From IMG/VR virus record IMGVR_UViG_3300020182_000025: a stretch of DNA of 64,000 nt. The stretch is one strand, 5' to 3'. Position 1 is the stretch's first letter. Each line of letters starts with the position of its first letter. The position numbers were made by a program, and so were the translations under genes. Below the pieces are notes generated by a model that did no database searches, had not been told where the DNA came from, and saw only the letters and a list, made by a program, of their open reading frames with translations. Below, one piece after another: positions 17,955-21,322 of this stretch. The DNA is from a virus.

Positions 17955-18937
17955 ACTTTAGTTCCTTTCTTGTCAATTAACCATTCAAGTTTTTTGCGAA
18001 CTCGTCTATCAAGCCGCTGTACATGTTGCATATCATCTTCGGTGATGTCCATATTACTATTATGTTTCTCATCCTGTACATTCTCTTCTGTTTGTACATT
18101 TTCAGAAACATTTTCGATACCAAAATCTTCTGATTCAGGTTCGAGGTCTTTCTCGGATATAAAAGTAATACTTTCACCTCTTCTTTCTTTCATACTCATA
18201 TTAGCCGCTACAACAAGCAAGATAGCTAACGGATCAAATACTAGTATCAACAATATTATCACAAACCTTACAGTCTTGTCAAGCGTTTCTTTATCAGTAT
18301 TACCATAAATCATTTCGGCTACATACAACAATGGACCGACTTCAACTTCAATCAGGAGCTGTTCTGTGTCTAGAATCAGCTTTTCTTCCGACAATATGTC
18401 AATGGAAGCGATGGCTTCGTCAATGGAGGTGTTTAGTTGAGTTCTCTCTGCTGCTTGATTCTCTCTGGTGGCTATGGCACCATCGTCACCACGAATTCTA
18501 TCGTAGTCTATGAGTGTTTGTACTGTGTTGTCTAACTGCGCCAGTACCGTCTCTGCGTCTGCTATGCGTCTCTGCTCAGTTTCTATACGCCTGTCAAGCC
18601 TAGCGACTTGTAATGTGTTATCGCCCGTAGATACGCTGTGTTCAAGGTGTGCTTTACTAAGAAAGCCAAAGATACCCATCGATGTGATGACGGACAGAAT
18701 GACAACCGCTATGGCGAAGTAGGACTTCATGAAAAACGCTGTCTTGTTCCAGTATCGATATAGCCAAGACGCTGTGACTAGTTTAGCCACTTCTAATACA
18801 ACACCCATTGCGAGAATAGGTGCCGCCGCTGCCGGAAAGATTGCCATGAGACCGACAATCGAAAAATAACCTGCTACTGTAGATACTGCCAATGCCGAAA
18901 ATAAAAGTAATATTATGAAGAACATTTTGGTGTCCAC
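17951..18937 (-). CDS. Multi-pass membrane coiled-coil protein
   Basis: Three N-terminal hydrophobic helices, coiled coil, one more TM segment before FDPLAI. Confidence 0.65.
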   Translation of the reverse strand: MDTKMFFIILLLFSALAVSTVAGYFSIVGLMAIFPAAAAPILAMGVVLEVAKLVTASWLYRYWNKTAFFMKSYFAIAVVILSVITSMGIFGFLSKAHLEHSVSTGDNTLQVARLDRRIETEQRRIADAETVLAQLDNTVQTLIDYDRIRGDDGAIATRENQAAERTQLNTSIDEAIASIDILSEEKLILDTEQLLIEVEVGPLLYVAEMIYGNTDKETLDKTVRFVIILLILVFDPLAILLVVAANMSMKERRGESITFISEKDLEPESEDFGIENVSENVQTEENVQDEKHNSNMDITEDDMQHVQRLDRRVRKKLEWLIDKKGTKV

Positions 18938-19257
18938 TCTATTGGTTCGAAATCAGCCAACGGTTCTTTATTTAGGCGAATGTTGAGCATGGAATTTAAA
19001 CACTTAGGATCCTGTCGTTGCTGCCACTGTAGGAGAAACTCTTGCATCTTAGCCCATGACTTCTTATCATACTCGGCAATAGTTTCCTTCTCAAGTTGTC
19101 CTTCGTACTCTAGGACATACTTGGAAGAACCATAATATTTTTCATACAGTCGTTGTGTTTTGCCTGAGTAACCTATGTAGTATGTTCCGTCTGGAAAATA
19201 GGTACAATAAACTCTATGTACCTGTTTCTCCTTCGGCTTCTTTTTCTTCACTGCCAT
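18913..19257 (-). CDS. Minimal GIY-YIG-like protein
   Basis: VYCTYF..YYIGYSG...YYGSS...E; late promoter TATAAATA at 19292-19285. Confidence 0.6.
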   Translation of the reverse strand: MAVKKKKPKEKQVHRVYCTYFPDGTYYIGYSGKTQRLYEKYYGSSKYVLEYEGQLEKETIAEYDKKSWAKMQEFLLQWQQRQDPKCLNSMLNIRLNKEPLADFEPIEWTPKCSS

Positions 19258-19423
19258 CTAGTGTTCCTTCATCATCAGAAACACTATTTATAAAGTCCTC
19301 AGCAGTCGTAAACTTCAGGTCAGTATCGTTCTTCTTACCGAAGATTTTGTCCCAGTTATCGCTGTACTTTTTCTTGTCTACTTTGCGTTGGGAGCTGCCT
19401 TTCCCACCATGCCACTGTGCCAT
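19214..19423 (-). CDS. Small conserved phage protein
   Basis: WHGGKGS..R......Y.DNWDKIFGKK pattern. Confidence 0.65.
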   Translation of the reverse strand: MAQWHGGKGSSQRKVDKKKYSDNWDKIFGKKNDTDLKFTTAEDFINSVSDDEGTLDGSEEKEAEGETGT

Positions 19424-19427
19424 TGTA

Positions 19428-19571
19428 TTATCCTACTTTTAGTTTAGTCTTGCCGGTCTTTGCTATAGAAGCAAGTCCACCTGGCGCACCATAGAACTCA
19501 CCAAAAATTCTTGCGCCATCATTGACATCCCAAAATCTCAATGCTACTCCACCTCCACCATGCTTATGCCA
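19428..19571 (-). pseudogene. Start-less C-terminal fragment of an interrupted gene (WHKHGGGGVALRFWDVNDG...KLKVG*)
   Basis: 48-codon open frame preceded by TAG and ending 4 nt before the next ATG. Confidence 0.6.
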
Positions 19572-19603
19572 CTAAAAGCTCTAAACTTAATTTCACGACT
19601 CAT
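19544..19603 (-). pseudogene. YopX N-terminal stub (MSREIKFRAF...) that stops after 19 aa
   Basis: Matches the N-terminus of the YopX gene at 20099-20434; has an RBS. Confidence 0.6.
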
Positions 19604-19635
19604 ATCTCTATTCCTCTATAGGGCTGAAGGGGTGG

Positions 19636-19815
19636 CTAGCCTAGCTCCATTAATTCCATAGGGCTTTTCGGCTCTGGCGGCGCTACATAGCCATGCTTTG
19701 CGGCATATAACAATGCGCTATCTCTAGCAGATTGCCGAATTGCCTTTACTGTCTCTAGTAGCTTTTTGTCATCAATTCCATGCTGTCTAAATAACATATC
19801 TAATTCATCTTCCAT
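19636..19815 (-). CDS. Small hypothetical protein in the insert, 59 aa (MEDELDMLFRQHG...)
   Basis: Manual translation; GGAG RBS. Confidence 0.6.
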   Translation of the reverse strand: MEDELDMLFRQHGIDDKKLLETVKAIRQSARDSALLYAAKHGYVAPPEPKSPMELMELG

Positions 19816-19867
19816 TCTAACTCTCCATATAATCAGTAATAGGTAAAGTCGGTATTAAGCTGCATTG

Positions 19868-20056
19868 CTAATCGACGGAAATGCTGTCGTCAGATAGAAC
19901 TCGCTTTGCTTGCTCTAGCGTGAACAAAGGCACTGTCTCACCTTTATCTGCGCTCCCGACTGGCAGTGAGTAAGCTATACGATAGGTTTCTTTTTCGCTC
20001 ATTTCTCCCAAATCGCATGGGAACATGTGTACGCACGATAAATCTTCAGCTTTCAT
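19868..20056 (-). CDS. Small hypothetical protein in the insert
   Basis: ORF track; GGAG RBS. Confidence 0.6.
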   Translation of the reverse strand: MKAEDLSCVHMFPCDLGEMSEKETYRIAYSLPVGSADKGETVPLFTLEQAKRVLSDDSISVD

Positions 20057-20098
20057 AATTTTATCTCCAGTATTAGGTATAATCAGTAATGTGATGGG

Positions 20099-20434
20099 CT
20101 AGGGTTTAAGTAGTTCTGGGTTCTCGTGAATGTTGCCGATTACTTCCATATCAATTCCTCGGTTCCATTCGGGATATTGAATTCTTTTTGGTGGGTGTTG
20201 AATCTTGAACTTCGCCCACTTTTCATCCCAAACAACAGAGAAGCACGAATCCCCGTTCTCCTGAAGAATATCCCCCTCAAATATCTCCACCCCGTTCTTA
20301 TCTTTGAGGCCGGTGTATTGCATTATTATCTTTTCGCCATTATCTCCGAACTCCTGAATCAAGTCCTTTAAGCCATCCCATTGCCACATATGCTTGCAGT
20401 TTGGCCCCCAAGCCCTAAACTTAATCTCACTCAT
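20099..20434 (-). CDS. YopX-family protein
   Basis: EIKFRAW, MQYTGLKDKNGVEIFEGDI, EVIGNIHENPELL. Confidence 0.9.
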   Translation of the reverse strand: MSEIKFRAWGPNCKHMWQWDGLKDLIQEFGDNGEKIIMQYTGLKDKNGVEIFEGDILQENGDSCFSVVWDEKWAKFKIQHPPKRIQYPEWNRGIDMEVIGNIHENPELLKP

Positions 20435-20700
20435 TCGCTGTCACTCCTTTCTAGCAATTCTGGGTTCTCGTAGATGTTGCCGATTACTTCAATCTCACAG
20501 CCGGTAGAAGGGTAGAAGTGCGGCAAGTCTTTTGGATTGATATTCCATTTGCCTGCCAATTGACAAGCGCCGCCGCCAAAACTAAATCCTGTAAAACTTT
20601 TTTTGAATTTTACAGATTTGCCTTGTCCTACGAGTTTAACTTCTAATCCGCTCCAGACAAATCCTCCGAAGCCTAGTGATCCTGTTTGTGCATATGCCAT
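20431..20700 (-). CDS. Chimeric ORF: N-terminal part of gene X fused in frame to a YopX C-terminal tail
   Basis: Gly-rich N-term followed by CEIEVIGNIYENPELL; ATG at 20700 overlaps the upstream stop. Confidence 0.6.
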   Translation of the reverse strand: MAYAQTGSLGFGGFVWSGLEVKLVGQGKSVKFKKSFTGFSFGGGACQLAGKWNINPKDLPHFYPSTGCEIEVIGNIYENPELLERSDSE

Positions 20701-20888
20701 TACCAATCTTCCTCTATATCGTTTTCATCTATGAAGTCATCAAGCGATGCTTCGATTTCTAGTTCTGCACCACAAAAAGAACAAAAACTTACTACATAAT
20801 GCCTATCTGACATGTCGTGCTTTACTTTGTATTCAGCTTCACACTCTTCGCATTCTACAGTTTTTTTGATTATGATACTATCTGACAT
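20700..20888 (-). CDS. Small Zn-ribbon protein
   Basis: CEEC...CSFCG. Confidence 0.7.
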   Translation of the reverse strand: MSDSIIIKKTVECEECEAEYKVKHDMSDRHYVVSFCSFCGAELEIEASLDDFIDENDIEEDW

Positions 20889-21322
20889 TCGATTCCCGCC
20901 TTTTCTAAAAACTCCTGTCCACAACCTTTTGTTGCGTTATACTCATTTATATAGTACACCTGTGAGATGCCTGCTTGATAGATAAGTTTAGCACACTCGA
21001 TACACGGCATATGAGTGACAAACAGTGTAGCACTTTGACTCGACTCCGTTGACTGACACAATTTCATCAATGCGTTGGCTTCTGCGTGTAAAACTTCTGG
21101 TTTGGTTTCATAATAAATATTTGTTCCTGTGTCTATAGTATGTTCACATTCATTGTCCCAACCAGAGGGTGTGCCATTGTATCCGATCGACAGTATCCTG
21201 TTGTCTCTTACAATAACACACCCTACTTGCAGTTTCTTTGCTCTGGATAACAGTGCTGTTTCTTTAGCTATCTTAACATAATACTGTATCCATCTTTCTT
21301 TCAGTTCTTTCCATGCGCTCAT
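20870..21322 (-). CDS. cd: dCMP deaminase
   Basis: SIGYNGTPSG, HAEANAL, PCIECAKLI. Confidence 0.9.
   Translation of the reverse strand: MSAWKELKERWIQYYVKIAKETALLSRAKKLQVGCVIVRDNRILSIGYNGTPSGWDNECEHTIDTGTNIYYETKPEVLHAEANALMKLCQSTESSQSATLFVTHMPCIECAKLIYQAGISQVYYINEYNATKGCGQEFLEKAGIECQIVS

Follow-up and report, generated by a model that had tools for sequence, protein, structure and literature searches.

The 64,000-nucleotide (nt) stretch of DNA studied here (IMG/VR virus record IMGVR_UViG_3300020182_000025; hereafter the window) comes from an uncultured marine T4-like myovirus, whose gp43 DNA polymerase is 48-49% identical to those of cyanomyoviruses. In this genome, near nrdA, nrdB and the dCMP deaminase gene, a small gene, which we call X, is split by an insert that carries a complete YopX gene, two small open reading frames (ORFs; orfA and orfB) and, at its two ends, fragments of YopX genes. 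All features of gene X and of this cassette lie on the minus strand, and coordinates are those of the whole stretch. Cassettes of the same kind occur in other phages as well. Our preferred reading, in which we place moderate confidence, is that the cassette moves in permuted form, as a circle or multimer that is joined via microhomology, and that its arrival knocked out X.

The split of gene X is confirmed by comparison with intact homologues. Using its first 62 residues as query against a large protein collection, we found a protein of 127 amino acids (aa; P0002) in which both halves of X are contiguous. The respective 90% cluster has 30 members, including 116-aa forms on dozens of contigs. 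In relatives of the window phage, intact X is 116 aa long (P0004, P0007) and is located between the same two genes that flank the split form, i.e., a Zn-ribbon gene and a 69-aa gene (L139-L143, L164, L165). A preliminary description of the locus had proposed an interrupted gene and had anticipated an intact homologue of about 105-115 aa, which the 116-aa forms at exactly this locus bear out.

At the DNA level, homology to intact X spans 20700..20522 and 19561..19428, with both halves being about 86-100% identical to their intact counterparts. The N-terminal part (X-N; 20522..20700) comprises nt 1-179 of X, i.e., codons 1-60 with the predicted barrel strands 1-4, and is 86-93% identical to the intact X of L004, L139 and L164. 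The C-terminal part (X-C; 19428..19561) consists of the last 134 nt of X, including the stop, and has no start codon of its own. It lies within the start-less 47-codon frame (19571..19428) noted before, which does end 4 nt ahead of the next gene (ATG at 19423). X-C and the DNA downstream of it are 100% identical to L164, which carries intact X, and we therefore consider the split to be recent. Between the halves, 38 nt of X (13 codons, KGNVG[FY]TFLAG[AS]Y) are gone and 960 base pairs (bp; 20521..19562) stand in their place, an insert that is lacking in the intact-X alleles (L139-L143, L164-L167). That is, the insert of about 0.95 kilobases (kb) described earlier is real, but its borders shift to 20521..19562 and part of X is lost with it. 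The gene is inactivated: in the structure model of X, the split interrupts the barrel behind strand 4, and no start codon is available for X-C.

The insert (19562..20521, delimited by the ends of X homology) begins with the C-terminal tail of a YopX paralogue (20431..20521; HFYPSTGCEIEVIGNIYENPELLERSDSE followed by a stop), which is in frame with X-N. As had been claimed, a gene with TAATG start thus runs into a YopX C-terminal tail, i.e., the fusion ORF X-N::tail (20431..20700; 89 aa). Its first 60 codons are Gly-rich, and its last 29 match the C-end of the Pfam YopX family with 30.3 bits, covering only positions 94-128 of the 128 positions of the model. The tail gene ends in ..INHFYPSTGCEIEVIGNIYENPELLERSDSE and a stop, and is ATGA-coupled to MSEIKFRAWGPN of the complete YopX gene (20099..20434; 111 aa; phrog_98), which reaches 95.5 bits for Pfam PF09643 at a gathering score of 22.4. 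It is followed by orfA (19868..20056; 62 aa), which lies between 13-nt ATTACTGATTATA repeats at 20078-20090 and 19828-19840, and by orfB (19636..19815; 59 aa), the most widespread module of the cassette. Neither of the two belongs to a known family. A conserved linker CCACCCCTTCAGCCCTATAGAGGAATAGAGAT (19603..19635) leads from orfB to a further YopX start at 19602, which reads MSREIKFRAFSGISMVEVE up to a stop. This N-stub (19553..19602) represents nt 1-50 of a 123-aa YopX paralogue, which we denote YopX'. The preliminary description had listed an intact YopX, two small ORFs and an N-stub; all of them are present, but the stub comprises 50 nt (17 codons) of YopX' and not 10 codons.

The right junction can be read directly from the three sequences involved. 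Intact X has GCTT-ATGGTGGAG-GTGGAGTAGC, YopX' has AAGC-ATGGTGGAG-TCTGATGAG (L009, L011), and the window has AAGC-ATGGTGGAG-GTGGAGTAGC. By this alignment, the right crossover falls within the 9-nt identity ATGGTGGAG (19553..19561; YopX' nt 42-50) that is common to intact X and YopX'. The stub is 100% identical to the start of the full YopX' in L009, L011, L168 and L169. The tail, on the other side, is the usual C-end of a common YopX subfamily. Full-length proteins with the same C-end were found (P0021-P0031), e.g., P0029 with ..PIDINHFYPSTGCEIEVIGNIYEN.., and the subfamily shares a conserved motif ..INHFYPS[TI]GC.. that includes F-Y-P-S-T. The 8-bp tandem duplication CTTCTACC CTTCTACC (20503..20518), which had been noted near the right junction, exists, but it reads TTC TAC CCT TCT ACC and codes for exactly these residues of the tail. 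Because F-Y-P-S-T is conserved in the subfamily, the duplication is not a scar. It is coding sequence of the donor YopX, and a target-site duplication is thereby ruled out.

Next, we compared the insert with cassettes in other phages, where orfB is found at 31 IMG/VR loci in many contexts and where L011 and L013 hold copies of orfA with 100% identity. In a phage with a DNA polymerase A (P-type; L011, L169), the order YopX'-orfA-orfB-linker is found between a 49-aa gene and a 110-aa gene. The insert of L011 has 857 bp and carries the 11-mer GAGGAATAGAG, which is also contained in the window's linker, at both borders. The empty site, present in four contigs (L193-L196), reads ..TGGGCT-GAGGAATAGAG-GTCATGACG... 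and holds a single copy of it. Another phage has an SNase and Terminase_2 backbone (T-type; L185, L189, L013, L186). Here, the empty-site relative L191 has a terminator hairpin AACCCC-GCTTTTAGT-GGGGTTTTTTTT, and the insertion is located in the hairpin loop. The left junction of L185 reads AACCCC-GCTTTTAGTGG-CATAAGCATGGTGGAGTC.., i.e., YopX' from nt 24, and the right junction reads ..orfB-linker-ATGAGTCGTGAAATTAAGTTTAGA-GCTTTTAGTGG-GGTTTTTTTT, i.e., YopX' nt 1-34. The T-type flanks overlap in L191 by exactly 11 nt, namely GCTTTTAGTGG, which is single there and which is contained in the window's stub as nt 24-34. In a further type (L009), YopX'-orfB is found between 6-nt CCCTTC repeats within the linker; we searched for the respective empty site and did not find it, such that insertion is presumed for this phage.

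These cassettes can be mapped onto each other when the P-type cassette is doubled. The doubled cassette is colinear across its own ends both with the T-type insert (P-type positions 27 to 857, on to 37) and with the window insert (153 to 857, on to 53). That is, the cassette is circularly permuted among the P-type, T-type and X insertions, with opening points just upstream of the YopX' ATG (P-type), at YopX' nt 24-34 (T-type) and at nt 42-50 (X). The differing opening points imply a circle or a head-to-tail multimer as a putative intermediate.

The locus of gene X itself provides an allelic series among relatives, which comprises empty sites, intact X, the form seen in the window (C) and shorter deletion derivatives. 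At least 7 independent metagenome assemblies, which stem from several studies and assemblers, contain the same 1321-nt arrangement with 99-100% identity; it is therefore not an assembly artefact. The protein collection lists P0018, an 89-aa fusion protein identical to that of the window, in 39 of its index blocks, and two shorter fusion proteins, P0019 and P0020, are found on 21 and 10 contigs, respectively. The latter are 85-aa fusions of the D alleles (L144-L155), which end in ..ENPELLKP and a stop and are followed by orfA-orfB-stub-X-C. The D alleles equal the window form minus 344 bp between two repeats of about 40-45 nt, which are 87-90% identical in the window and are located in the tail (20453..20497) and at the C-end of the complete YopX (20109..20153). 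Their variants ..NIY.. and ..NIH.. correspond to two different crossover points (P0019, P0020). In the E allele (L006), a larger deletion cuts X-N at codon 51 and joins it to the orfA-orfB spacer. In the F allele (L005), the junction of X and tail is kept, and another gene follows after the conserved ..GNIYENP stretch. Given this series, we conclude that the locus is a recombination hot spot and that the insert decays from its left side. Two further variants were observed. L187 is a T4-like allele with single-nucleotide polymorphisms of the T-type orfB. In L158 (3310-3330), a run of N precedes a divergent central YopX segment within a window-type allele, which represents either a mosaic variant or a scaffolding artefact.

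According to our preferred reading, a mini-cassette of 0.65-0.95 kb without an integrase, i.e., YopX, optionally orfA, orfB and the conserved linker, would pass between unrelated marine phages in circularly permuted form. A circle or head-to-tail multimer of it would be opened at any stretch of 6-11 nt that matches the target, and the phage or its host would supply the recombination or replication machinery for the join. In X, the right join would have been made via ATGGTGGAG. A crossover of a YopX' circle at this point would give X(1-226)-YopX'(51 to end)-cargo-YopX' stub-X-C. For the left side, two options are conceivable: either the circle was a composite that had formed from two YopX paralogues in a donor array, and about 270 nt were deleted after its insertion, or a single patch event made the joins at both ends. 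Remodelling on this side is plausible given the deletions seen there in the D and E alleles. The shorter alleles would have arisen from homologous deletions between the YopX-end repeats of about 40-45 bp plus illegitimate deletions. Ribosomes that begin at the TAATG-coupled start of X would reach the stop of the tail and start anew at the ATGA of YopX. In this way, the cargo would be plugged into the operon of its host and be read, presumably, from the translation start of X. We infer the physical circle, the order of the left-side events and the acting enzymes from the junctions and alleles given above.

Several observations weigh against this reading. The circle or multimer is deduced from sequence comparisons and not directly seen, and the permutation could also stem from tandem duplications in donor genomes instead of free circles. 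The left junction, ..GACTTGCC(G) directly followed by CACTTCTACC.., offers at most 1 nt of ambiguity or microhomology and lies 38 nt further upstream in X than a single crossover predicts. YopX' ends in ..DIQAVIGNIHENPELLKP and has just 30 nt in common with the tail. As sampled, tail and stub are thus to be assigned to different YopX paralogues, which contradicts the claim that both ends stem from one permuted YopX gene. Furthermore, stub and tail together account for about 45 aa of a YopX gene of at least 111 aa, i.e., about 70-90 codons are lacking. One simple circle crossover cannot give the present structure, since the two are too short and X has lost 38 nt. As the sole event, it is ruled out by the 38-nt loss, the lacking YopX codons and the paralogue found in the tail. 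The crossover of a small circle into X, as suggested in the preliminary description, hence gains strong indirect support from the permutation elsewhere, with its empty sites and 11-nt cores, and from the 9-nt match on the right but, as a single crossover, fails at the left junction. In the protein collections, we did not find the primary integrant that a single crossover predicts, in which nt 1-226 of X would be followed by YopX' from nt 51 and X would end in ...AYGGV and a stop. Likewise, exact-pattern scans for a donor gave no match for the tail, for the junction of tail and YopX, or for orfB with a full YopX'. A scan with a 29-mer of YopX' returned just P-type and L009-type contexts plus YopX' fragments, and the nearest virus record (G001) has no YopX copies.

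Taken by itself, the X allele is accounted for equally well by a linear patch made in one step, i.e., a linear piece YopX(c)-YopX-orfA-orfB-YopX' of a donor genome or concatemer that entered X during co-infection through two illegitimate joins or template switches, with no circle involved. The two breakpoints with the loss of 38 nt are the signature of a patch, and tail and stub would simply be different paralogues of the donor. The ATGA coupling of tail and YopX resembles a native junction of tandem genes, and an orfB followed by a YopX' start is also found in the T-type phage. However, the scans did not yield the respective donor array, and a patch leaves the permutation of the P- and T-type cassettes, their 11-nt cores and the intact empty sites unexplained. 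It could cover the permutation only if the donor were tandem or multimeric, and such a model hardly differs from the one we prefer. We thus regard a linear patch as a rather unlikely, though serious, account of the cassette. Chimeric assembly, i.e., a T4-like phage joined to another phage through shared sequence, is probable for other contigs with this very cassette: in L181-L184 (ERZ27295468, ERZ807169, ERZ23491062), the cassette connects a T4-like left flank with a T-type right flank. In the window, however, flanks on both sides are T4-like, the junctions with X are unique with at most 9 nt in common, fewer than a k-mer assembler could bridge, and the same 1321 nt recur across studies and assemblers. 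The probability that the window is a chimera is accordingly negligible.

A classical mobile element, i.e., an insertion sequence (IS) or transposon, a homing-endonuclease gene, a group I/II intron or an intein, would mean that X is either restored by splicing or cut by an enzyme of the element. In favour of it are the discrete insert in a coding gene and the in-frame left junction. Nevertheless, we consider this very improbable. Rfam yields nothing at an E-value below 0.1, no ORF of the insert matches a nuclease, transposase, integrase or recombinase family in Pfam or PHROGs, and terminal inverted repeats and a target-site duplication were not found. This agrees with the earlier statement that integrase and transposase are absent. 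For an IS or transposon, the transposase and the inverted repeats are thus missing, and 38 nt of the target are lost instead of duplicated. Introns and inteins are ruled out since no Rfam intron matches and since, with these 38 nt deleted, neither splicing nor excision could restore X. An integrase-driven site-specific element would require a tyrosine or serine recombinase, which the cassette lacks, and a constant att core, whereas the cores differ for each site (GAGGAATAGAG, GCTTTTAGTGG, ATGGTGGAG). Finally, the unit of YopX and orfB might be a self-mobilising mini-element, in which YopX or orfB promotes excision of the circle and its microhomology-guided integration into co-infecting phages. 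We hold this to be improbable. If true, the unit would be a phage parasite without a recognisable recombinase, and it would account for the multi-copy, truncated and fused YopX genes found in phages.

The layout of L181-L184 deserves a note of its own. On their left, they carry the genes for the deaminase and the Zn-ribbon protein, X-N::tail, YopX and orfA; on their right, a 140-aa gene and Terminase_2; the cassette is identical over about 650 nt. These contigs are probably assembly chimeras and, read as such, show that T4-like and T-type phages co-occur in the same samples.

We also related the cassette to known systems of gene exchange. T4-type phages form, and apparently package, mini-circles (PMC2839356). 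The respective modules are flanked by PeSLs, i.e., composites of a sigma70-like early promoter and a stem-loop terminator (Arbiol et al. 2010, PMC2839356). PeSL cassettes have a size of 0.4-1.4 kb, carry small ORFans, are located where T4-like genomes are variable, and are gained and lost without an integrase (PMC2839356; PMC4122927). Their circular monomers and dimers were shown by inverse PCR and have been proposed as vectors of horizontal transfer (PMC2839356), and PeSL-mediated modular shuffling was described for T4-type phages (Comeau et al. 2014, PMC4122927).

The cassette studied here resembles PeSL cassettes in that small ORFans are carried without an integrase and in that empty and filled alleles are found between close relatives. 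PeSL mini-circles are shown by experiment, whereas the circle proposed here is deduced from sequences. Furthermore, the modules of our cassette have no promoter/terminator motif: within 19300-20900, the gene strand shows neither a sigma70-type promoter nor a stem-loop terminator. The conserved linkers occur in one copy per donor contig and not genome-wide, which also rules out the linkers ACTGATTATATGGAGAG and CCCTATAGAGGAA as promoters of a T7-type phage polymerase. In contrast to PeSL shuffling, the joins are chance matches of 6-11 nt at arbitrary points, including points inside X and YopX', the cassette crosses unrelated phage types (T4-like, DNA-polymerase-A phage, SNase/Terminase_2 phage), and it interrupts a gene instead of being intergenic.

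Illegitimate or microhomology-mediated recombination is a general source of mosaic phage genomes (Hendrix model). The novel joints observed here, with few nt of identity and regardless of gene borders, fit this model. What differs is that a permuted unit recurs with precise single-copy cores, which points to a recurrent circular or multimeric intermediate instead of one-off joints. The YopX family (Pfam PF09643, TIGR01671) is named after yopX of the Bacillus subtilis phage SPbeta; to our knowledge, no function has been established for it. The 111-aa gene of the window is a clear member, and tail and stub represent the conserved C- and N-ends of the family.

How small ORFan genes spread horizontally between phages is mostly deduced from genome mosaicism, and the intermediates are seldom observed. 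Here, public metagenomes hold a natural series, which comprises empty and filled sites, the interrupted gene and products of decay, and two further backbones in which the cassette, opened at different points, can be compared with intact empty sites. This adds sequence-level support, beyond the laboratory pair of coliphages in which mini-circles were first found, to the idea that integrase-less cassettes may pass between unrelated phages as a circle or multimer and may insert via matches of 9-11 nt, even within genes. The locus provides primer sites for testing for mini-circles in North Sea viromes, makes YopX and orfB candidates for a role in their own spread, and brings to light a phage-encoded protein family with a predicted Vap-like barrel.

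Gene X is a real gene, but the word native, as used in the preliminary description, applies to it with a caveat. The site is empty in 16 of 17 IMG/VR relatives as well as in G001 (64,612 bp; apparently counted among the 17, as L131), such that the Zn-ribbon gene directly adjoins the 69-aa gene, a state that we take to be ancestral. An AATGGCA repeat flanks the X module and is single in the empty site (TAATGGCACAGTGG), and X is also present in a different phage context (L004). Judged from this distribution, X is an accessory module. DNA of the locus has no match in GenBank phages, where both halves of X are also without a tblastn match, and an IMG/VR scan with X-N gave no matches.

An AlphaFold2 model of intact X, based on a 10-sequence alignment, shows eight strands with a mean predicted local distance difference test (pLDDT) of 78 and a predicted template-modelling score (pTM) of 0.73. 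The top five Foldseek matches are VapB, VapG and VapD of Rhodococcus equi (probability 1.00, template-modelling (TM) score about 0.6). VIA-align scores the Vap proteins with Z 9.0-9.6 over 106-107 of the 116 residues, while the next fold reaches Z 5.2. Intact X is therefore predicted to be a phage protein with a Vap-like eight-stranded antiparallel beta-barrel. It superposes with the barrels of R. equi Vap (PDB 4cv7, 4csb, 5aeo), a resemblance that derives from the predicted structure only, since the structural alignments have 12-19% identity. Unlike the R. equi proteins, X has neither a signal peptide nor an N-terminal disordered region, stands in a phage context and shows no relation at the sequence level. 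That is, none of 10 X-family members is assigned to a Pfam family, and a profile search of PDB sequences found no Vap chain. The weak hint at a VapA-type barrel given earlier is hence supported by the predicted fold but not by a detectable sequence relation. Among 1.8 billion representative proteins, the X family is tiny, i.e., few homologues of 111-167 aa with 27-40% identity were found, plus low-complexity matches.

YopX genes show repeated truncation and fusion at junctions. In T-type phages (L185:3309-3971, L189, L170, L172), aa 9-88 of YopX' are fused in frame to a DUF551 domain, which results in proteins of 221-230 aa; in L188 and L190, DUF551 stands alone ahead of orfB. In another phage (L012:3024-3536), orfB lies in frame inside a 170-aa ORF, and the conserved flanks of orfB are much shorter in L007. 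From these contexts, the orfB module appears to move on its own, too. A central YopX motif, MQYTGLKDKNGVEIYEGDI (L009:3740-3810, L185:3415-3480), spans about 62 nt and has 80-87% DNA identity to more than 100 phages of Staphylococcus, Streptococcus and Brevibacillus. In this comparison, its nucleotide conservation is unusually strong for a gene without an assigned function.

The left flank of the locus is the Zn-ribbon gene (20700..20888; 62 aa), whose stop overlaps the start of X (TAATG) and which is kept in all relatives. The right flank is the conserved 69-aa gene (19214..19423; MAQWHGGKG...). The junction of these two genes and its surroundings (window 19424-20700) are a general insertion hot spot (L121-L138 etc.). 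At the site of X, L132 carries a 248-aa FAD/NAD-binding oxidoreductase (PF00970, PF00175), and L167 carries X plus a 464-aa FG-GAP-like protein. In L138, L144 and L163, a methyltransferase is found between the deaminase and Zn-ribbon genes. Finally, the 69-aa gene overlaps the next gene (114 aa; 18913-19257) by 44 nt in different frames, an overlap that is kept in all relatives examined.

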